Shown here: positions 26,443 through 64,000 of the stretch, one piece after another
Layout of the letters: each line of letters begins with the position of its first letter
Position numbering within the stretch: the first letter of the stretch is position 1
Virus record (IMG/VR): IMGVR_UViG_2687453522_000001
Length of the DNA: 64,000 nucleotides
Direction: 5' to 3' (one strand)
Source: a virus
Lineage: Duplodnaviria > Heunggongvirae > Uroviricota > Caudoviricetes
Notes under the pieces: generated by a model
What the model was told of the DNA's origin: nothing
What the model saw: the letters and a program-made list of their open reading frames with translations, nothing else
The model's database searches: none
Translations under genes and position numbers: made by a program

Positions 26443-26520
26443 GATCAGGGATCTATATGGATCTAATTGGGATCTGTATGGACCTGATTATTGGATCTAC
26501 CCAGTGGATAATGTGGATAA
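26443..26520. promoter_or_regulatory. origin elements: cluster of five GATC sites and two tandem DnaA boxes
   Basis: GATC at 26443, 26450, 26460, 26471 and 26494; AGTGGATAA and TGTGGATAA at 26503-26520; another TGTGGATAG near 26268. Confidence 0.6.
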
Positions 26521-26569
26521 GTGAAAAACCGGCCACTGAGGACCGATTTCTGTGAAGAGTTGAAGCGAA

Positions 26570-26971
26570 TTAGTTGTCGTTTTCCGTACCTACTTCTTCG
26601 ATCAACAAACTACTTGTATAGATGCGTAACGTATCACCTTTGTAGAGGAATTGATAACCAACACCTCCTATGGCAGGGAGGTCGGGGAACATTTCAGAAG
26701 CAACCCCAGAGCAAATCACGGCGATACAGTCATCCCGCTGTACATCCTTACGCTCTGTACTCAAAGTTTGCTCTTCCCCGATTGCCTTTGTCATCTCCTC
26801 ATCTTCGTACGCAACAGGGATATATTCAATCGCATCAGGCGTTTTGATACCCAGTTCTTCAGCAATCTCGAACGCCTGTTTAAATTGATCTGACCCAGGA
26901 TATCCAACGGTAATACTCTCAATTTCGAACAAAGAAGTAGCGTTGTTTATTTCTTGTTTAACCGCAAACAT
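26570..26971 (-). CDS. hypothetical protein
   Basis: 133-aa ORF. Confidence 0.5.
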   Translation of the reverse strand: MFAVKQEINNATSLFEIESITVGYPGSDQFKQAFEIAEELGIKTPDAIEYIPVAYEDEEMTKAIGEEQTLSTERKDVQRDDCIAVICSGVASEMFPDLPAIGGVGYQFLYKGDTLRIYTSSLLIEEVGTENDN

Positions 26972-27041
26972 GTTGTTTGTCCTTAGTGGCTTCCTGCCAA
27001 AGTAAAGTCATGAGTGTTGATATTACGATTTCTACAGTTGA

Positions 27042-27401
27042 TTAAATCTGCTCGCTGAGCTTTTGCTTCAGCAGATAACCTTCCAGCGGCCAGATTTTCT
27101 CAATGGCGTTCTTACGGGCCACCTTACGGCCAATCTCCGCGTCGAAATTTTCAGGGCTGGCACAGGCGCTTTCCCCGGTAACAATGAATCCATTGCACAG
27201 CACCAAGACACAGATGGTCAGGCTACGCGTAGAGGGATGAACAGACAGCACCTCACGAACGCCTTCGTGCGCAGCGCGAATGCCGTCAAAAGCTGTGAAA
27301 TAATGCTCTTCGGCAATCACACTCTCGATGTGATCAGGAGTCAGGCGTGGTGCTGTTTTGCCTTTGGCCAGAATCTCTTTTTCAATTTCCATATCGGACA
27401 T
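27042..27401 (-). CDS. hypothetical protein
   Basis: 119-aa ORF with plausible start context. Confidence 0.5.
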   Translation of the reverse strand: MSDMEIEKEILAKGKTAPRLTPDHIESVIAEEHYFTAFDGIRAAHEGVREVLSVHPSTRSLTICVLVLCNGFIVTGESACASPENFDAEIGRKVARKNAIEKIWPLEGYLLKQKLSEQI

Positions 27402-27412
27402 AGTTTTTCCTT

Positions 27413-29202: not shown

Positions 29203-29219
29203 ATTGCTCTAATAAATAT
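29203..29219 (+). promoter_or_regulatory. C1-type operator upstream of the hrdC-dmt operon
   Basis: ATTGCTCTAATAAATAT. Confidence 0.55.
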
Positions 29220-29290
29220 TGTTTTTTATGTCGTGTTTTCGGTACCATTCAGCCATCGCCCTTCAATGGGTATTTGTTTGGAGTCGTCAG

Positions 29291-29575
29291 ATGCAGATGG
29301 AGCTAATAAGCCGCAAAGAGTTCGATAGCCGTGTAACCAGCGGTGAACTCGACAACTTGCAGGCTATCAAGGTGAAAGAAGGCTTTTGCCTCATTGGGAA
29401 TCAGAGCGGAACAAATCGCGTTTTTATGCTTCGCCGTACGGATTTGAAGCCATTTGTCTGGAAGAACGAAATTGGTCCCAGCTCATACGCTCAAACTAGG
29501 GGGTGCCTCAACCTGGCCTTTTTCTACAAAAACGAGCTTTCTGTGGTTGATATTCAAGGGTTACAACATGTTTAA
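29291..29575 (+). CDS. hypothetical protein, first gene of the hrdC-dmt operon
   Basis: Start set at the ATG 8 nt after GGAG; stop overlaps the rdgC-like start (ATGTTTAA). Confidence 0.45.
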
Positions 29576-30473
29576 GCACTGGAAAAACATTACTATTTAT
29601 AAACTTTCTCGTGAAGCGGATCTGACCGACTTAGAAGATAAAAAGAAAATGATCCTTTTCACGCCATGCGGTAGTCAGGATATGGCCAAGTTCGGTTTTG
29701 TATCTCCATTTGGTGATAATTCCGAAGTTATCGCTATGCATGGAAATGGTTTTATCCTTGTTGAAGCAAAGCGCGAAACAAAAATCCTTCCCCCGCCGGT
29801 TATCCAGCGAGCTATTCAAGAAAAAATTGAAAAACTCGAGCAAGAACAAGCGCGTAAACTGAAGAAAACAGAGAAGGACTCCCTGAAAGACGAAGTTCTG
29901 CATTCTCTTCTGCCACGGGCTTTTTCAAAGTTTTCTGTTATCCAGGCGATCTACGACGGTTCAACTAAACGTATCTATATCAATGCCAGCGCGCGGCAGG
30001 CAGAGGATATGCTCGCGCTTATGCGTAAATCTCTGGGTTCTCTTCCTGTTGTTCCCCTAAGTGTTGAAAATCCCATTGAATTAACGCTGACCGACTGGGT
30101 ACGTGATGGTAGTGCTCCACAGGGATTTCAAATGGGGGATGCGGCAGAACTTAAGGCAGTGCTTGAGGATGGCGGTATTGCCCGAGTGAAAAAGCAGGAT
30201 TTGGGAAGCGATGAAATTTCCACACACCTGGAAGCTGGCAAGCTCGTTACTAAGTTGGCACTCGACTGGCAGAACCGCATTAAATTTACACTGGACCATA
30301 ACTTCAGCCTTACCAGCGTCAAATTTGCGGATGAATTGCTTGAGCAGAACTCTGATATTGATAGTGAAGATGTTGCGCAGCGACTGGACGCAGATTTCTT
30401 CCTGTTGACCAGTGAAATTTCGTGCCTGGTTGATGCTCTGGTAAATGCCCTTGGTGGAGAGGCTAAGCAGTGA
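29568..30473 (+). CDS. hrdC: RdgC-like recombination-associated protein
   Basis: N-terminus [16 protein letters not shown]...[17 protein letters not shown] resembles E. coli RdgC; the track ORF start at 29454 is an N-terminal over-extension. Confidence 0.8.
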
Positions 30474-32734
30474 AAGAGCTGTGCTATGGATCTGTTTGCA
30501 GTGGAATTGAAGCCGCGAGTATTGCCTGGGAACCGTTGGGTATGCGTCCGGCGTGGTTTGCTGAAATCGAGCCTTTTCCATCTGCCGTTCTTGCGCACCG
30601 CTGGCCCCATGTCGCCAACCTTGGCGACATGACAAAACTTGCCAAAAAAGTCCTGGCTGGGGAAATCGAATCCCCTGATGTGCTCGTCGGGGGTACGCCT
30701 TGTCAGGCATTCAGTATCGCGGGCTTACGTGGTGGGCTTGATGATGAACGCGGCGCGCTAACTTTGAAGTATGTGGAGCTTGCAAATGCAATTGACGACA
30801 AACGGTCTGAGTCCTTCCTCAAACCGACAGTTATCGTCTGGGAAAATGTCCCAGGAGTCCTGTCATCGGCAGATAACGCCTTCGGATGTTTCCTTGCCGG
30901 ATTGGCTGGAGAAGATGCGCCATTTGAACCAGGTGATCGACCTGAATCAGGAAAAAGTAACGCGTTCTGGCGGTGGGATGGCAAAACCGGTTGCCATGCT
31001 CCAAAGTGGCCGCAGTGTGGTTGTATTTATGGACCGCAGCGAAAGGTGGCCTGGAGAATCCTTGATGCCCAATACTTCGGAGTGGCACAACGACGCCGAC
31101 GCGTGTTTGTTGTCGCAAGTGCTCGAACAGACTTCGATCCCGCAACGGTACTTTTTGAGTTCGAAGGCGTGCGCCGGAATATTGCGCCGAGCCGAAAAAA
31201 GAAGGAAATCGCTTCCGCCATTACTGCAAATGGCGCTGCAATCAGTGGCGAAAGCCTAAATCCATGCCTACACGCTGGCATGTCCCCCGGTATGAAATCG
31301 ACGAAATCCGTAAACGGTTTCAGGATGGCGGCATTTGGGGAATATATTGACGATGAAACCGCATTGACAGTAAAGGCAAGAGACTTTAAAGATGCCACTG
31401 ACCTTGCCGTTTTTAGCAGCACTGGAGCAGGTTTTTGGTCAGAAGGGCATGGTACATTGCGGGCGCGTGAGCAAGAAAGCCATGAGCATCTTGTTACATT
31501 GGCTTTTCCTGAGCGTATGAGTGGTACACAACATGCAGCAACTAAGAATACTTCACCATCTCTAATGGCTCAAAATCCAACTGCTGTTTGCTATGAAGTA
31601 AGAAACGAAGAAGTAGCTGTCCGCCGTCTTACCCCTGTCGAATGTGAGAGACTTCAAGGTTTTCCTGATGGGCATACATTGATCCCTACGGAAAAGCGTA
31701 AAAAAGTTAATTCAGATGAACTGGCATATCTGCACAATCACTATCCAGATTTAAGCGAAGAAGAGGCCGCAATGCTTGCAGCTGACGGACCGCGTTACAA
31801 AGCGATCGGCAATAGTATGGCGATACCAGTAATGCGCTGGATTGGCGATCGGATTGCCAAGGCTGCATGTCGGCAGAAGGAAGGGAGTGAAACAAAAGAG
31901 CGAAAAGTTAAACCAGCGGCAGAATTCGAACGGTCCATATTCAAATGGGCTGGTGGAAAATTTGGTGTTCTGGAACAAATCTTTCGCTATTTGCCAGAAG
32001 GGAAGCGCCTGATTGAACCTTTCGTTGGTGGCGGAGCTGTCTTCATGAATGCCGGATACCAGGAAAATCTGCTAAATGATGTGAATGCTGACCTGATTAA
32101 CTTTTACAAGACTCTGCAACGCGAGACGCATTCACTTATCACACTGGCGCATCGTTTCTTCCAGGACTACAACACACAGGAAGGATACCTGGCAGTACGG
32201 AATGCGTTTAACAAACAAGTCTATGATGATTTACATCGCGCAGCGGCGTTTTTGTTCCTGAACCGACATTGTTTTAACGGATTGACGCGTTACGACCAGG
32301 CCGGTGAGTTCAATGTCGGTTACGGGAAGTATAAAACTCCGTATTTCCCATTACAGGAGATGGAAGCCTTCCTCGGTGCGGAAGGGCGGTCTGAGTTTGT
32401 ATGCGGTGATTTTGCTGCGGTGATTGAAGCTGCCGGAGAAGGAGATGTCATCTTTTGCGATCCGCCGTATGAACCGCTCCCAAATACAGAGGGATTCACG
32501 AACTATTCCGGTCATGACTTTAAGTTTGAAGAGCAAAAACGCCTGGCGTCTCTGTTGACGGATGCTCATCGCCGAGGTGCAAAGGTTCTCATTACTAACA
32601 GTGGCGCGCCAAACATCAGAGAACTTTATCAGGACAGTGGCTTCAGAGTGGAACCTCTTTTTGCCAGACGTTCTGTGTCTTGTAAGGGGGACACTCGAGG
32701 TGTTGCTCATGACGTTATAGCAATATTGCTCTAA
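30470..32734 (+). CDS. dmt: bifunctional DNA methyltransferase: N-terminal C5-cytosine MTase fused to C-terminal Dam-like N6-adenine MTase
   Basis: 754 aa; [11 protein letters not shown] and ENVPG (C5-MTase) in the N-terminal half; FVGGGAV and FCDPPYEP in the C-terminal half. Confidence 0.85.
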
Positions 32735-32740
32735 TAAATT
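32724..32740 (+). promoter_or_regulatory. C1-type operator overlapping the dmt stop codon
   Basis: ATTGCTCTAATAAATTT, exact match to the recurring 17-mer. Confidence 0.55.
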
Positions 32741-32918
32741 TATTAGTGTAATATCGCCTCAATGAATCGTGATTTATAGAGCGATTTAGCTGTTAGCCGC
32801 GACAGGCGCGGCGGCAAGTATGGCGGGGTAGTGACTCCTTCCCCCTCATGACGCCGAGTTGCCAGGTTGACCATACGCCTAAGTGGCAACACCGAAGTGC
32901 GTTACGAGCTTCCAGTTT

Positions 32919-32945
32919 GCCCATCTTCGGGTGGGCGTTTTTTTC
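32919..32945 (+). terminator. rho-independent terminator
   Basis: GCCCATC-TTCG-GGTGGGC followed by GTTTTTTT. Confidence 0.55.
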
Positions 32946-33409
32946 AGGGTTTTCGTCATGGTTAGCGACTTTGCGGCGGTTTAGAAACTGACCATTAAAG
33001 TAAATGCAAACGATGATCTGATGATGGTAGCGGCCTAAGAAGCCAGACGCCACGGGGTATGAGTCGTCCCCCGTCAAAAAATCGACCGCAGAGTGTCCCC
33101 GTCTGTGTATTAGGGAACGGGGAGGCACAACAGGTAAGGGCGCTGGTGTGATTAACCAGATGAACGAGAAGGGGCCATCTGTTGGTCAGCGTCCTTTCCT
33201 GTTGCGTCTTCTTTTCAGCGTAACAGCGGTGCTTAACAGCACTTTGGGTACAGTTCCACGAATTTACGGGTATATCCCGTCATGCTGAAAGCGCTAATCA
33301 CGCTGGAAGCCAGGGTTATGCATCCCCTGTTACCGAATTGCAGCCAGGGCGCGGTGCGCCGAAAAGCATACGGAGGTGGAAGCCCTCGCCGGAGACGTAC
33401 CCGGCAAGT

Positions 33410-33569: not shown

Positions 33570-33674
33570 CAGGTAAGGGTATTTTGCGACGTCGGAGATC
33601 GCCGAGCTTGGCAGAGGGTTCGAATCCCTACGAAGTACCCTTACCGTTGTGATGAATGCGCAGGCTGATGCGCG
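33570..33674 (+). repeat. structured repeat unit A (stem-loop with tRNA T-arm-like core)
   Basis: CAGGTAAGGGTA...TACCCTTACC 10-bp stem around a loop containing GAGGGTTCGAATCCCT; followed by the conserved tail GTTGTGATGAATGCGCAGGCTGATGCGCG. Confidence 0.5.
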
Positions 33675-33836
33675 AAAGACATTGCAGCTATTGCGGAAAA
33701 GAGCTGTTCGGCGGGGCAATTAAACGCCCGTGAGAGTCTGAAATAACCGCAAGCCGGAGATCAGCACCGGTCATCACAACACAACAGGTTGTACTGCACC
33801 CATTTTGTTGGACGATGAAATGGAATAGCCCCTAAT

Positions 33837-34358
33837 ATGTCAAAGCCAAAATACCCTTTTGAAAAGCGCCTTGAAGTCGTGAATCACTACTTCACAACTG
33901 ATGATGGTTACAGGATCATCTCGGCACGTTTTGGTGTCCCCCGAACCCAGGTCAGGACATGGGTTGCCCTCTATGAAAAACATGGAGAAAAAGGTTTAAT
34001 TCCCAAACCTAAAGGCGTTAGTGCTGATCCAGAGTTGCGTATTAAGGTCGTGAAAGCTGTGATCGAGCAGCACATGTCCCTTAATCAGGCTGCTGCTCAC
34101 TTTATGCTTGCTGGTAGTGGTTCTGTAGCCAGGTGGCTGAAGGTCTATGAAGAGCGCGGAGAAGCTGGTTTACGCGCGCTCAAGATTGGCACCAAAAGAA
34201 ACATTGCAATATCAGTTGATCCAGAAAAAGCGGCATCAGCATTGGAGCTGTCAAAAGACCGACGCATTGAGGATCTTGAAAGGCAAGTTCGATTTCTTGA
34301 AACGCGGCTTATGTATCTAAAAAAGCTGAAAGCCTTAGCTCATCCCACGAAAAAGTGA
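33837..34358 (+). CDS. insJ: IS150 transposase OrfA (InsJ)
   Basis: 173 aa MSKPKYPFEKRLEVVNHYFTTDDGY..., HTH-containing OrfA. Confidence 0.9.
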   Translation: MSKPKYPFEKRLEVVNHYFTTDDGYRIISARFGVPRTQVRTWVALYEKHGEKGLIPKPKGVSADPELRIKVVKAVIEQHMSLNQAAAHFMLAGSGSVARWLKVYEERGEAGLRALKIGTKRNIAISVDPEKAASALELSKDRRIEDLERQVRFLETRLMYLKKLKALAHPTKK

Positions 34359-35206
34359 AAGTACTCAACGAGCTAAGGCAGTTTTATCCTCTTGATGAGC
34401 TTCTCAGGGCTGCGGAGATACCGCGCAGTACGTTTTATTATCATCTAAAGGCTCTCAGCAAGCCTGACAAGTATGCGGACGTTAAAAAGCGTATTAGTGA
34501 GATTTATCACGAGAATAGAGGCCGATACGGATACCGTAGGGTAACGCTGTCTCTTCATCGAGAAGGGAAACAGATTAACCATAAAGCTGTTCAGCGCCTG
34601 ATGGGAACCCTCTCACTTAAAGCAGCGATTAAGGTCAAGCGATACCGCTCTTACAGAGGAGAGGTAGGGCAAACCGCCCCTAATGTTCTCCAAAGAGATT
34701 TCAAGGCTACGCGGCCAAACGAGAAGTGGGTTACCGATGTTACTGAATTTGCAGTCAATGGGCGCAAGCTGTATTTGTCTCCAGTAATAGATCTCTTCAA
34801 CAACGAAGTTATTTCTTACAGCCTTTCGGAAAGACCAGTGATGAACATGGTTGAGAATATGCTCGATCAGGCATTCAAAAAGCTTAATCCTCACGAGCAT
34901 CCTGTTCTGCACTCTGACCAGGGATGGCAGTATCGTATGAGAAGATATCAAAATATCCTTAAAGAACATGGTATTAAACAAAGCATGTCCAGAAAAGGCA
35001 ATTGTCTGGATAATGCTGTGGTGGAGTGTTTCTTTGGAACCTTAAAGTCGGAGTGTTTTTATCTTGATGAGTTCAGTAATATAAGCGAACTGAAGGATGC
35101 TGTTACGGAATATATTGAATACTACAACAGCAGAAGAATTAGCCTGAAATTAAAAGGTCTGACTCCAATTGAATATCGGAATCAGACCTATATGCCTCGT
35201 GTTTAA
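34355..35206 (+). CDS. insK: IS150 transposase OrfB (InsK), DDE catalytic domain
   Basis: 283 aa in the -1 frame relative to OrfA, overlapping its 3' end. Confidence 0.9.
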
Positions 35207-35230
35207 CTGTCCAACTTTTTGGGGTCAGTA

Positions 35231-35302
35231 CAGGTAAGGGCATTCTCCCTTATGGGGCTTGGCTTAAATGCATCGAGTGCTCTTACCGTTGTGATGAAGT
35301 GC
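35231..35302 (+). repeat. structured repeat unit B (interrupted at its 5' end by IS150)
   Basis: CAGGTAAGGGCA...TGCTCTTACC stem then GTTGTGATGAAGTGC tail; the IS150 target GGT lies inside CAGGTAAG. Confidence 0.5.
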
Positions 35303-35937: not shown

Positions 35938-36174
35938 ATGCAGAACAATCCGAACAAATGTCGAACGCTATGGGTGCGGTTATATATTTATGCCGTCCTC
36001 TGTTTGATTGTGTCACTGGTTCTGTATGTTTGGCTTTTGCCAAATATGATCTCATCTAACAGCACAATACTTGTATTGTTGGGAGTCCTTCTCGCGCTCA
36101 TTTACCCGGCTTTCGCAGTAGTCTTTTTTCGTGAAAAAACCAGGAAATTAATTAATGAAAAAAACGTTGATTAG
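35938..36174 (+). CDS. small two-helix membrane protein
   Basis: 78 aa with two hydrophobic segments; 3' end overlaps the start of the lipoprotein gene. Confidence 0.5.
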   Translation: MQNNPNKCRTLWVRLYIYAVLCLIVSLVLYVWLLPNMISSNSTILVLLGVLLALIYPAFAVVFFREKTRKLINEKNVD

Positions 36175-36982
36175 TGCAGCGATTATTTTGGGTTCTTTAT
36201 GTCTGACCGGATGCGATCGGGTAGAGCCAGGTAACGTAGGGATCAAAGTAAATAAGCTGGGGGATGATAAAGGTATCGGTGAAGTAGTTGGCGTTGGTCG
36301 CTACTGGACAGGCTTGAATACTGAAGTTTATATCTTCCCGACCTTTAAGCAAATGAAGACATACGATGAGCCGTTCAGCTTCCAGATGAGCGACGGAACA
36401 ACCATTGGTTACCACATCGGCGTAGCCTACAAGGTTGATCCAGCAAAAGTCACAACGGTATTTCAGACCTATCGCAAAGGTGTAGATGATATTACTGATA
36501 CCGATCTACGCCAGAAGGTTGCAGATGCTCTGAACCGGTTAGCCAGCAAAATGACCACCGACAAATTTATCGACGGTGGCAAATCTGAATTGCTTGATGC
36601 AGCCCTTAAAGACATTCAGGAAGAAATGACGCCAATCGGCATTCAGGTGATGAGCCTCTCTTATGTAGGTAAGCCAGAATACCCGCCAACAGTTATTGAC
36701 AGTATTAACGCCAAAGTCACGGCAAACCAAAAAACCCTGCAACGCGAGCAAGAGGTCAAACAACGTGAAGCAGAGGCCAACATGCTGCGCGCGGAAGCTG
36801 CCGGACAGGCTGATGCTATTCGCACAAAAGCCCAGGCCGAAGCTGATGCCATTCGTTTACGTGGTGAAGCTCTGCGCCAGAACCCCGGTGTTATGGAGTT
36901 GGAAGCGATCAACAAATGGAACGGTACATTACCGCAGTATATGACCAGTAATACCGCTGTTCCGTTTGTTCCGGTGAAATAA
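36155..36982 (+). CDS. plp: SPFH/band-7-like lipoprotein
   Basis: 275 aa; lipobox LCLTGC after signal peptide MKKTLISAAIILGS; C-terminal Ala/Glu/Gln/Arg-rich coiled-coil typical of SPFH proteins. Confidence 0.65.
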   Translation: MKKTLISAAIILGSLCLTGCDRVEPGNVGIKVNKLGDDKGIGEVVGVGRYWTGLNTEVYIFPTFKQMKTYDEPFSFQMSDGTTIGYHIGVAYKVDPAKVTTVFQTYRKGVDDITDTDLRQKVADALNRLASKMTTDKFIDGGKSELLDAALKDIQEEMTPIGIQVMSLSYVGKPEYPPTVIDSINAKVTANQKTLQREQEVKQREAEANMLRAEAAGQADAIRTKAQAEADAIRLRGEALRQNPGVMELEAINKWNGTLPQYMTSNTAVPFVPVK

Positions 36983-60688: not shown

Positions 60689-61882
60689 GTGACCTGGGAC
60701 GATCACAAGAAGAATTTTGCTCGCCTGGCGCGAGATGGTGGTTACACCATCGCACAATATGCCGCCGAGTTTAATCTCAACCCAAACACCGCACGTCGTT
60801 ATCTCCGTGCATTCAAAGAAGACACCGGAACAGCGGACAGCCGTAAGCCAAATAAGCCTGTCAGGAAACCACTAAAAAGCATGATCATTGATCACGCTAA
60901 TGATCAACGTGCAGGTGATCACGTTGTGGCTGAAATGGCTGAAAAACAAAGAGTTAATGCTGTTGTCAGTGCCGCAGTCGAGAACGCGAAGCGCCAGAAT
61001 AAGCGCATAAATGATCGTTCTGATGATCATGACGTGATCACCCGCGCCCACCGGACCTTACGTGATCGCCTGGAACGCGACACCCTGGATGATGATGGTG
61101 AACGCTTTGAATTCGAAGCTGGCGATTACCTGATAGATAACGTTGAAGCGCGGAAGGCCGCGCGCGCTATGTTGCGTCGGTCCGGGGCCGATGTTCTGGA
61201 AACCACTCTTCTGGAAAAGTCTCTCTCTCATCTCCTTATGCTGGAGAACGCCAGGGATACGTGTATTCGCTTGGTTCAGGAAATGCGCGATCAGCAAAAA
61301 GACGATGATGAAGGAACTCCGCCTGAATACCGTATCGCGAGCATGCTAAACAGCTGTTCCGCGCAGATAAGCAGCCTGATCAACACCATTTACAGCATCC
61401 GGAATAACTATCGAAAAGAAAGCCGGGAGGCGGAAAAGCACGCTTTGTCTATGGGGCAAGCTGGCATTGTTAAGCTGGCATACGAACGAAAGCGTGAAAA
61501 CAACTGGTCAGTGCTGGAGGCAGCTGAATTCATCGAGGCGCATGGAGGGAAAGTACCGCCCCTGATGCTGGAGCAAATCAAAGCCGATCTGCGTGCTCCT
61601 AAGACCAATACCGATGATGAGGAAAGGCAAACAGCCGTCGGTGGCCCTTCTCTTGAAGATCTGGACAAAGTTGCGCGAGAACGGGCCGCCAACCGCCGCG
61701 CCGATGCCGCATTGTGGATTGAGCAGCGTAGGGAAGAAATCGCCGATATCGTTGATACAGGCGGTTATGGAGATGTTGATACTGAAGGTGTATCAAACGA
61801 CCCATGGCTGGAACAAGACCTGGACGAAGACGAGGAGGAAGACGAAGAAGTTACCCGCAAGCTATACGGGGATGATGATTAA
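60689..61882 (+). CDS. pacA: terminase small subunit-like packaging protein
   Basis: 397 aa; N-terminal HTH-like region ([18 protein letters not shown]); contains the pac hexamer cluster. Confidence 0.8.
60882..61039. other. pac-like packaging site: 4 + 3 TGATCA/G hexamers
   Basis: TGATCA at 60882, 60889, 60901 and 60916; TGATCG/TGATCA at 61011, 61023 and 61034. Confidence 0.6.
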
Positions 61883-63390: not shown

Positions 63391-64000
63391 CTATTGCGCG
63401 CTTTCGGGGTTGTCGTTTACTGGCTGCCCCTTCTTAGTTTTACGGCTGCGCGTAACTGATGCGGCTGATTTGACCTTTTTCTCTTCGCGAGTGATGGCAA
63501 TTTGTTTTTTTACATTTTCAATATCTGCCAGGCGATATATTTTTGCCTGCGGCCAGCGGTCGCAGATGATCGGTTCTATAGAGTCATAAAGGCTAAATTT
63601 TGCTTTCTCGAATTCACCGTTGATGATGATTCCATCACGGAGAGTTTCATCGCAGATAAACACACCACACAGCGGCACATGGTAACTAACTGATTTACCA
63701 TCATTGTAGTTAGGGCTACTGGAAATGTAGTGGACGCGCAGCATTGTTTCGCTAAAGCCGTGTACACGCATACGGAATTTTTCATCCTCCGGGTACTGCT
63801 TCATTAGCTCTTTTGTTGCTTCCAGGTTCTCTATGTATTTCGCACTGTGCTCATTGATCCCCGCGCTTTTCTGGATGCGAATGTCCTTATCAATCAGATG
63901 AATAATGCGGCCAGCGGTCATGTTGACGCTGTTCACAGCTTCTGTCTGATAAGTCGTAACCTTACGCACACCGCGAAGGATGTTAGGCACAGGATATAAA
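63391..64000 (-). CDS. c1: C1-like repressor, C-terminal part (gene continues beyond the window end)
   Basis: Minus-strand reading frame open from 63391 to the window edge; position convergent with pacB as in P1; identity by synteny only. Confidence 0.5.
   Translation of the reverse strand, partial: LYPVPNILRGVRKVTTYQTEAVNSVNMTAGRIIHLIDKDIRIQKSAGINEHSAKYIENLEATKELMKQYPEDEKFRMRVHGFSETMLRVHYISSSPNYNDGKSVSYHVPLCGVFICDETLRDGIIINGEFEKAKFSLYDSIEPIICDRWPQAKIYRLADIENVKKQIAITREEKKVKSAASVTRSRKTKKGQPVNDNPESAQ

Follow-up and report, generated by a model that had tools for sequence, protein, structure and literature searches.

The locus considered here lies within a window of 64,000 nucleotides (the whole stretch of DNA that was analysed) and centres on dmt, a plus-strand gene (30470-32734) for a 754-aa fused DNA methyltransferase. 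The gene starts with a GTG that overlaps the TGA of the upstream gene in a GTGA overlap, is preceded by the Shine-Dalgarno sequence GGAGAGG 8 nt 5' of the start, and ends with a TAA at 32732-32734. The upstream gene, hrdC (29568-30473, plus strand), encodes an RdgC-family protein of 301 aa (PF04381 RdgC, E=8.6e-98) that is identical to P1 HrdC at 301/301 residues. Ahead of it lies the first gene of the operon, uhr (29291-29575, plus strand; 94 aa), which matches P1 Uhr in 93/95 codons and whose product had no Pfam match. On the same strand, the operon is headed by the sigma-70 promoter Pdmt (29219-29248; -35 TTGTTT, -10 TACCAT), which has the same sequence as the annotated P1 Pdmt, and by the C1 operator Op68 or Odmt (29203-29219; ATTGCTCTAATAAATAT), with 1 mismatch to the consensus. 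The Op68 sequence is also that of the P1 and P7 site annotated as Odmt (former Op68), and by the P1 GenBank annotation it is the site through which the repressor controls uhr-hrdC-dmt. The first-pass annotation had placed the methyltransferase gene in a repressor-controlled operon behind an RdgC-like gene, and Op68 and hrdC bear this out. A sigma-70 scan missed both Pdmt and Pban and gave fewer hits than shuffled sequences, hence it was uninformative. The late promoter annotated inside this gene in P7 (LPdam2) was considered as a further candidate and rejected; its window counterpart AAGTTAATTCAGATGAACT poorly fits the consensus AAGTGACTT...TAnAAT and is not annotated in P1.

At its 3' end, dmt runs into a pair of C1 operators. 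The consensus for these operators is a 17-bp, asymmetric sequence, ATTGCTCTAATAAATTT, which is present with 0 mismatches as Op72a (Obana; 32725-32741, plus strand) and overlaps the dmt TAA, just as a perfect operator over the stop codon had been described before. The second operator, Op72b (Obanb; 32736-32752, minus strand; ATTACACTAATAAATTT), has 2 mismatches and is inverted relative to Op72a, with which it shares a 6-bp overlap. Both are 100% identical to the annotated Op72ab of P1 and P7. The two plus-strand promoters at this position are P2ban (32709-32740), in which a few spacer bases differ from P1, and P1ban (32726-32754), which is identical to P1. By the P1 annotation, Op72a and Op72b together form the bivalent C1 operator of the downstream ban operon, over P1ban/P2ban. 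Scanning the window for C1 operators yielded 10 sites when as many as 3 mismatches were allowed, versus 0.53 expected, and 0/100 shuffles reached 10.

Comparison of the window with P1 showed close agreement at the level of both protein and DNA. Dmt was identical to P1 Dmt (AAQ14041.1; GenBank AF234172/NC_005856) at 732/754 residues (97%) with 0 gaps, and the DNA identity was 97.9% over 4 kb. The P1 protein has the same 754-aa length and two-domain architecture, and its gene lies in the same operon, with Op68/Pdmt upstream and Op72ab/Pban over the stop codon. Megablast likewise showed the two to be colinear, with the order Op68-Pdmt-uhr-hrdC-dmt-Op72ab-tRNA-Asn/Thr...ban kept. The host element differs from P1 further downstream, where an IS3-family insertion follows the tRNAs and an SPFH gene replaces tciA-C. 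A search of Rfam at gathering threshold returned three tRNAs only, with no DicF-family hit for the downstream 'dicF-like region' annotated in P1. The dmt gene is 100% DNA-identical in about ten ~97-kb E. coli plasmids, and window positions 39829-64000 are 100.000% identical to the E. coli plasmid pCREC-629_2. The c1 repressor gene is on the same element ('Phage repressor protein C1', plasmid positions 23563-24414); it occupies 63391-64000 of the window and continues beyond, the window end cutting the gene. Among 5426 complete E. coli genomes, 492 (~9%) contained a dmt homologue.

The N-terminal half of Dmt (aa 1-475; 30470-31894, plus strand) was assigned to the C5-cytosine methyltransferases by profile searches, alignment and AlphaFold2 modelling. 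It matched Pfam PF00145 (C5 methylase) with E=2.7e-36 and 126.1 bits (cut-off 22), and NCBIfam TIGR00675 dcm with 117.4 bits (cut-off 100.65). Motifs recognized in this half were PCQ (aa 77-79), ENVPG (aa 125-129), QRRRR, motif IX (aa 385-400) and GNS with N448. When aligned to M.HhaI and M.HaeIII, the catalytic motifs IV, VI, VIII, IX and X were all present, and residue by residue C78, E125, R209, R211 and N448 of Dmt corresponded to C81, E119, R163, R165 and N304 of M.HhaI. Motif I is a variant, VCSGIEA (CSGIE at aa 10-14), in which a Glu replaces the second Gly of FxGxG, with the correspondence to M.HhaI drawn by eye; within the family, CSGIE is conserved to at least 90%, and it was modelled with a pLDDT above 90. 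The AlphaFold2 model of this half, based on a 41-sequence alignment, had a core pLDDT above 90 and M.HhaI as its top Foldseek match (probability 1.0). For aa 237-376 the pLDDT was below 50, which makes structural inference on the variable region impossible. The fold and the catalytic motifs IV, VI, VIII, IX and X are those of the M.HhaI/M.HaeIII-type enzymes of PF00145, from which Dmt differs by the motif I variant, by conserved insertions (~45 aa between motifs VI-VIII and ~30 aa between IX-X) and by a long variable region in which no likeness to known target-recognition domains could be detected.

The C-terminal half (aa 487-754; 31928-32731, plus strand) is of the Dam type. It carries KWAGGK, FVGGGAV (aa 518-524) and DPPY (aa 664-667), and it has KWAGGK, FxGxG and DPPY in common with E. 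coli Dam and the TIGR00571 family. Pfam PF02086 (D12 N6-adenine methylase) covered aa 493-726 with E=7.5e-58 and 196.7 bits (cut-off 22), and NCBIfam TIGR00571 dam scored 249.8 bits (cut-off 114.85). The host-Dam equivalog NF008152 scored 246.9 bits, under its cut-off of 441, and on these profile scores the half classifies as a Dam-family member, not as a host Dam equivalog. E. coli Dam (PDB 2G1P/4RTJ) aligned over its full length with the C-terminal half (E=1.4e-58). Whereas E. coli Dam is a host enzyme, Dmt is phage-encoded, repressor-controlled and fused behind a C5 methyltransferase, and the sequence similarity between the two is moderate. The residues of E. coli Dam that contact GATC are reportedly, in the 2G1P structure paper, K9, Y119, N120, L122, R124, P134 and Y138. 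In Dmt, K492, N603, L605, R607 and Y621 equal the conserved K9, N120, L122, R124 and Y138, and two DNA-contact positions are changed (Y119 to F602 and P134 to G617). Taken as a whole, Dmt is predicted from its sequence to be a single fused C5 and Dam-like methyltransferase with the catalytic residues intact in both halves. The fused 754-aa enzyme of the first-pass annotation was thus recovered in full: all of its motifs (PCQ, ENVPG, FVGGGAV and DPPY) were found, both domains scored above the profile cut-offs, and alignment of the catalytic residues left neither half without them.

For P1 Dmt, the role described is GATC methylation that permits cleavage of pac (Sternberg and Coulby 1990, as cited in PMC12707154 and PMC7253447). 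P1 requires methylation of pac by Dam or Dmt (PMC12707154, PMC7253447, PMC11437467), and dmt is non-essential in Dam+ hosts (PMC10695390). By orthology, with 97% identity to the P1 protein for which this was shown experimentally, the Dmt of the window probably methylates the adenine of GATC. The packaging site pac, the documented functional target of Dmt/Dam methylation, is located at 60882-61040 as a GATC cluster with 4 + 3 TGATC(A/G) hexamers. Another GATC cluster, six GATC in 158 bp, is found at the plasmid origin oriR (26443-26600) and corresponds to the five Dam sites annotated in P1 oriR. A GATC-rich origin had been noted earlier at 6 kb from the gene; the cluster is there, but the distance is true only from the dmt end (~6.2 kb), the dmt start being 3.9 kb downstream of it.

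We regard the gene, with a probability of roughly 0.93, as dmt (formerly dam) of a P1-like plasmid prophage, with the Dam half used for pac licensing and Op72 for ban. As such, dmt and its two C1 operators are classical P1 features that have already been described, and their re-identification adds nothing to the field. In a lysogen, C1 bound at Op68 would shut off uhr-hrdC-dmt, in which dmt is the third gene from Pdmt, and inactivation of C1, or infection, would lead to dmt expression. The Dam half would then methylate the seven pac TGATC(A/G) hexamers, upon which the PacA/PacB pacase would cut and headful packaging would start. Methylation of pac by Dmt would in this way make the phage independent of host Dam. 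The gene had previously been proposed to encode an orphan methylase with an anti-restriction or regulatory role; the orphan status stands, but the role has to be replaced by the documented one, GATC methylation for pac cleavage and packaging.

Between motifs VIII and IX of the C5 half lies the variable region (aa 243-384; 31196-31621, plus strand), the presumed target-recognition domain. In otherwise ~95%-identical Dmt proteins, this region consists of unalignable cassettes of 60, 98, 142, 195 and 234 aa, which differ in number and order among relatives. The window and P1 have a cassette of 142 aa, whereas P7 Dam (672 aa) has one of 60 aa and SJ46 Dmt (807 aa) one of 195 aa; the 234-aa cassette is that of P0099. 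The C5 core, the linker and the Dam half are near-identical in P7, SJ46 and RCS47 (Punavirus), and their operators are identical to those of the window. RCS47 Dmt (1095 aa) additionally contains a 341-aa Hint/LAGLIDADG intein before Cys78, which the window allele lacks; the empty site, GGTACGCC followed directly by TGTCAGGC, is at 30692-30708. About 31% of the dmt alleles of E. coli (152 genomes) had a LAGLIDADG intein exactly before the catalytic Cys78. The multispecific C5 enzymes of the Bacillus phages SPR, phi3T and rho11s, which have tandem target-recognition domains, resemble Dmt in being orphan enzymes that are encoded by phages and silent in lysogens, and their VIII-IX region, too, grows or shrinks by entire cassettes exchanged among relatives through recombination. 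Dmt differs from them by its fusion to a Dam domain, and its putative modules are not significantly similar to one another. Eight candidates for tandem 'TL'-type target-recognition modules, which would be the mark of a multispecific enzyme, were compared by pairwise local alignment with shuffles; the best z was 2.9, and none exceeded 3. We therefore take the likeness to the SPR-type enzymes as a lead only.

The swapping of variable cassettes, together with the location of the intein exactly at the catalytic cysteine, suggests that the C5 half is functional. Of 150 representatives of the family, 143-149 retain PCQ, ENV and QxRxR, and the fusion of C5 and Dam domains is maintained across no fewer than 8 separate clusters at 50% identity. 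We infer that the C5 half may be active, with a target that would be set by the swappable variable region. The wider proposal, in which an active C5 half has its specificity re-assorted among P1-like phage-plasmids by swapping 60-234-aa cassettes between ~95%-identical flanks, is tentative, and we would place it below even odds. If it is true, Dmt would combine a packaging licence (m6A at GATC) with variable anti-restriction (m5C), possibly multispecific like the SPR-type enzymes, and the Cys78 intein would be a homing element taking advantage of an active site that is essential. The P1 GenBank record lists C5 activity only as 'perhaps', and no report of a demonstrated Dmt C5 activity or target was found in searchable papers.

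The opposite possibility is that the C5 half is dead or decaying and may serve as a DNA-binding or folding appendage only, with Dmt being functionally just a phage Dam. The documented activity is GATC methylation only and the gene is non-essential; dmt is broken into pieces in phage 673R5, is entered twice (as dmt-A and dmt-B) in the P1 table of PMC10695390, and has lost motif IX in P0093. Moreover, the P1 reference strain carries a Trp at position 74, beside the catalytic PCQ, where Gly is at least 90% conserved in the family. In the allele studied here, however, all catalytic residues that align to M.HhaI are intact, the sole variant being the family-typical motif I CSGIE. Of the 22 substitutions that separate P1 Dmt from the window protein, the notable one is precisely G74 (window) versus W74 (P1), and the Gly of the window is the family consensus. 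The motif conservation and the persistence of the fusion given above also speak against decay, and functionally constrained proteins show such traits as exchange limited to the variable region and insertion of an intein at the active-site Cys. We consider a dead or decaying C5 half doubtful on balance. The reference that carries W74 is P1 mod749::IS5 c1.100; under the proposal of an active, re-assorted C5 half, its G74W allele may have lost function in the laboratory, and the absence of m5C reports could be explained in this way.

The position of Op72 raises the question of whether this operator acts on dmt too, either because C1 bound there would block or terminate transcription from Pdmt or through C1 looping between Op68 and Op72, which are 3.5 kb apart. 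Such looping between operators is described at the P1 c1 locus. Two high-quality C1 sites bracket the operon exactly (29203-29219 and 32725-32752), and the interval from the dmt stop codon to Op72 lacks an intrinsic terminator, with no terminator-like hairpin before the one at 32918-32937. Against this, Op72ab is given to ban only in the P1 annotation, and Op72 lies past the dmt coding sequence, where it would be unable to prevent Dmt synthesis. Since Pdmt is already repressed at Op68 in the lysogen, a further block to transcription near the 3' end would have little effect. An action of Op72 on dmt is improbable. Op72a is best read as regulating ban, and dmt's own operator is Op68; the earlier implication that the operator on the stop codon regulates dmt is not supported, and annotation should give this operator to ban instead of dmt. 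Transcription from P1ban/P2ban would proceed through the tRNAs and then ban, and the overlap of Op72a with the stop codon would reflect mere tight gene packing.

P1-type elements have a restriction system, EcoP1I res/mod, at a locus away from dmt, and Dmt might on that ground be the modification component in a restriction-modification pair with its nuclease elsewhere on the element. This is highly improbable: EcoP1I has its own Mod subunit, pCREC-629_2 has a SIR2-family gene in the P1 res/mod slot and no restriction endonuclease annotated at positions 1-50000, the neighbours of dmt (uhr, hrdC, tRNAs, the IS3-family element, the SPFH gene and ban) are not nucleases, and a GATC methylase with a nuclease would be DpnII-like, with nothing of that kind present. 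No restriction nuclease was found within ~10 kb on either side of dmt, in agreement with what the first-pass annotation had stated for the adjacent genes, and Dmt is an orphan methylase in this sense.

P1-like plasmids, present in ~9% of complete E. coli genomes, spread resistance genes, and an m5C methylase that is variable and encoded by the phage could influence the range of restriction barriers open to them. The findings also have value for annotation, because the RefSeq name 'Dam family methyltransferase' ignores the C5 half. In some records Dmt is even mislabelled as 'multidrug DMT transporter permease', which is a confusion with the name of the gene.

We identified a single ORF of 754 aa at 30470-32734 (+), which begins at a GTG codon that shares bases with the TGA of the upstream gene (GTGA), is preceded at 8 nt by GGAGAGG, and ends in TAA (32732-32734). 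Pfam assigned the N-terminal half to the C5-cytosine methylases (PF00145, E=2.7e-36) and aa 493-726 of the C-terminal half to the D12 N6-adenine methylases (PF02086, E=7.5e-58), and in agreement with this, TIGR00675 (dcm) and TIGR00571 (dam) both exceeded their NCBIfam cut-offs. The fused C5 and Dam-like polypeptide proposed in the first-pass annotation was thus borne out, including all of its quoted motifs (PCQ, ENVPG, FVGGGAV, DPPY) and its position behind an RdgC-like gene (PF04381, E=8.6e-98). Between 29400 and 33400, identity was 97.9% with Escherichia phage P1 (AF234172/NC_005856, 65342-69338) and 98.1% with phage JL22, and the protein matched P1 Dmt at 732/754 residues with 0 gaps. P1 and the window are colinear through the tail genes, repA/par, dmt, ban, and pacA/pacB. 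In addition, 39829-64000 and positions 1-24172 of the E. coli plasmid pCREC-629_2 (NZ_CP024817.1, 96,990 bp) share 100.000% identity, and about ten plasmids of this type carry the dmt DNA at 100% identity. Judged by this colinearity, the Dmt identity and the plasmid matches, we identify the window as a P1-like phage-plasmid and the gene as dmt. Of 5426 complete E. coli genomes, 492 carried a homologue, nearly always on a plasmid. The 2004 genome record of P1 already annotates everything within the interval singled out earlier, which is therefore already known.

The names given to these proteins in databases vary. NCBI entries P0001, P0031, and P0038 label Dmt as 'multidrug DMT transporter permease', which appears to be an annotation error spread from the gene symbol, and RefSeq names the RCS47-type proteins only 'Dam family methyltransferase'. 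In the P1-like phage vB_EcoM-673R5 (L007 369-3532), hrdC is annotated as RdgC1/RdgC2 and dmt in pieces (C5 methyltransferase, hypothetical protein, Dam), a splitting that suggests frameshifts or errors in sequencing. PMC10695390 likewise divides dmt into dmt-A and dmt-B in its P1 table.

The Dam half aligned end to end with E. coli Dam structures (2G1P, 4RTJ; E=1.4e-58). DPPY was kept, and of the contact residues of the E. coli Dam-DNA structure, K9→K492, N120→N603, L122→L605, R124→R607, and Y138→Y621 were also kept, with two contact positions altered (Y119→F602, P134→G617). For the C5 half, HMMER alignment to M.HhaI/M.HaeIII equated C78 with Cys81, E125 with Glu119, and R209/R211 with Arg163/Arg165, and placed motif IX in a 16-residue stretch and motif X at G447-N448-S449. 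An alignment of 41 family sequences shows at least 90% conservation of the motif I variant of this half, VCSGIEA. The AlphaFold2 model built from this alignment had a catalytic core with pLDDT >90, and its top Foldseek match was M.HhaI (probability 1.0). Neither half is visibly inactivated, which argues against the loss of catalytic residues from one domain that the first-pass annotation had considered; on alignment both halves keep these residues.

The proposed repressor-controlled operon also held. The curated P1 GenBank record places Odmt (former Op68, a C1 repressor operator) and promoter Pdmt upstream of uhr in the operon uhr-hrdC-dmt, and the window carries both, Op68 at 29203-29219 (one mismatch to consensus; same sequence in P1 and P7) and Pdmt at 29219-29248. 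Ten operator matches at ≤3 mismatches were found in the window, against 0.53 expected by chance, and the 17-mer ATTGCTCTAATAAATTT at 32725-32741 (0 mismatches) indeed spans the dmt stop codon. In the P1 record, however, promoters P1ban and P2ban overlap a divalent operator at the 3' end of dmt, Obanab (former Op72a,b), described there as the element that 'controls expression of ban'. In the window, Op72a is at 32725-32741 and Op72b at 32736-32752 (minus strand, 2 mismatches), and window, P1, and P7 are identical over 32723-32790, the stretch running from an A two bases 5' of Op72a to the alignment end; every P1-annotated regulatory site of dmt/ban was found. Given the P1 annotation and these identical sites, the stop-codon operator is genuine, but it controls the transcription unit that follows and does not regulate dmt. 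The earlier observation is confirmed, and its interpretation was partly right: dmt encodes a fused orphan methylase in a C1-controlled operon and has no nuclease partner, but the operator was assigned to the wrong unit.

The unit controlled by Op72 comprises a dicF-like region, tRNA-Asn, tRNA-Thr, tRNA-Ile2 (called Met/CAT by ARAGORN), and then ban. The P1-annotated dicF-like region (32849-32950), just past Op72, matched no Rfam family at gathering threshold and ends at a terminator-like hairpin (32918-32937), 3' of Op72, plus a T-run. After tRNA-Asn and tRNA-Thr lies an IS3-family insertion sequence (33663-35276) missing from P1, with orfA (33837-34358, HTH) and orfB (34355-35206, rve integrase core). 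Upstream of tRNA-Ile2 and ban, the segment 35904-37001 has an SPFH/Band-7 gene (36155-36982, 275 aa) in place of P1 tciA-tciB-tciC.

Within ~10 kb of dmt we found parB, parA, repA, small unknown ORFs, uhr, hrdC, tRNAs, the IS3-family element, the SPFH/Band-7 gene, ban, and dbn, none of them a nuclease, and positions 1-50000 of pCREC-629_2 contain no annotated restriction endonuclease. This makes Dmt an orphan methyltransferase, as had been suggested and as was accepted earlier for P1. Beyond the window, a SIR2-family gene of pCREC-629_2 (L008 28653-29960) occupies the slot of the P1 type III res/mod genes (EcoP1I); it resembles an exchanged cargo gene and may have a role in defence.

The function that the first-pass annotation put forward as open is already documented. 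According to passages in PMC12707154, PMC7253447, and PMC11437467, citing Sternberg and Coulby 1990, P1 pacase cleavage requires adenine methylation of GATC-containing pac hexamers, for which either host Dam or phage Dmt suffices; dmt is dispensable in a Dam+ host (PMC10695390). The pac of the window (60882-61040) has the canonical 4 + 3 TGATC(A/G) hexamers, and by orthology to P1, Dmt would methylate their GATC adenines and so permit pacase cleavage. The 'GATC-rich origin' noted earlier is oriR (26443-26600). The adjoining region (26535-27409) is unlike P1, which has upfA there; it contains an N4 Gp49 / Sf6 gene 66 family gene on the minus strand (27042-27401) and, in addition, a 133-aa ORF that matched nothing in Pfam.

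For the C5 half, the P1 record gives activity as 'perhaps', and no paper demonstrating m5C activity was found in the literature searched. We aligned six Punavirus Dmt proteins, plus further variants, and found them near-identical in C5 motifs I-VIII and again from motif IX onward through the whole Dam half. These otherwise ~95%-identical proteins carry, between motifs VIII and IX (aa 243-384 of the window allele; 31196-31621), unalignable cassettes of 60 aa (P7), 98 aa (database entries P0098 and P0104), 142 aa (P1 and window), 195 aa (SJ46), or 234 aa (P0099). The cassettes share recognisable sub-blocks in varying combinations (window versus L002, L005, P0098, P0099). This exchange suggests specificity swapping, and elements may differ in their C5 target. 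For tandem recognition modules related to one another, as in the multispecific Bacillus-phage enzymes, we found no statistical support, and AlphaFold2 left the variable region unmodelled.

Like the cassette swapping, an intein is a feature of relatives and not of the window itself. The RCS47-type Dmt (1095 aa) has a 341-aa insertion (L004 1502-2524) exactly between Pro77 and the catalytic Cys78 of PCQ, and its Hint and LAGLIDADG domains and C...HN|C junctions (GGTP|C...VVHN|CQAFS) identify it, by sequence, as a canonical intein. The window allele lacks it (empty site 30692-30708). The DNA of this intein occurred in 152/5426 complete E. coli genomes, ~31% of those carrying dmt, and more distant relatives have inteins at the same site. 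The wider family comprised 4463 50%-identity clusters (E <1e-30), and among the best 150 representatives PCQ was retained in 143, ENV in 149, and QxRxR in 149. A C-terminal D12 domain was Pfam-confirmed in 7 of these 150 (P0124, P0125, P0127, P0130, P0133, P0157, P0159), and P0121 likewise has DPPY. Motif retention, cassettes, and inteins argue for selection on this putatively active C5 half. The P1 reference strain (mod749::IS5 c1.100) has Trp74 (L001 9290-9292), two residues ahead of the PCQ proline, where the window (codon 30689-30691), P7, SJ46, JL22, and RCS47 have Gly74, the residue found in at least 90% of the 41-sequence alignment; the reference allele may be defective for C5 activity.
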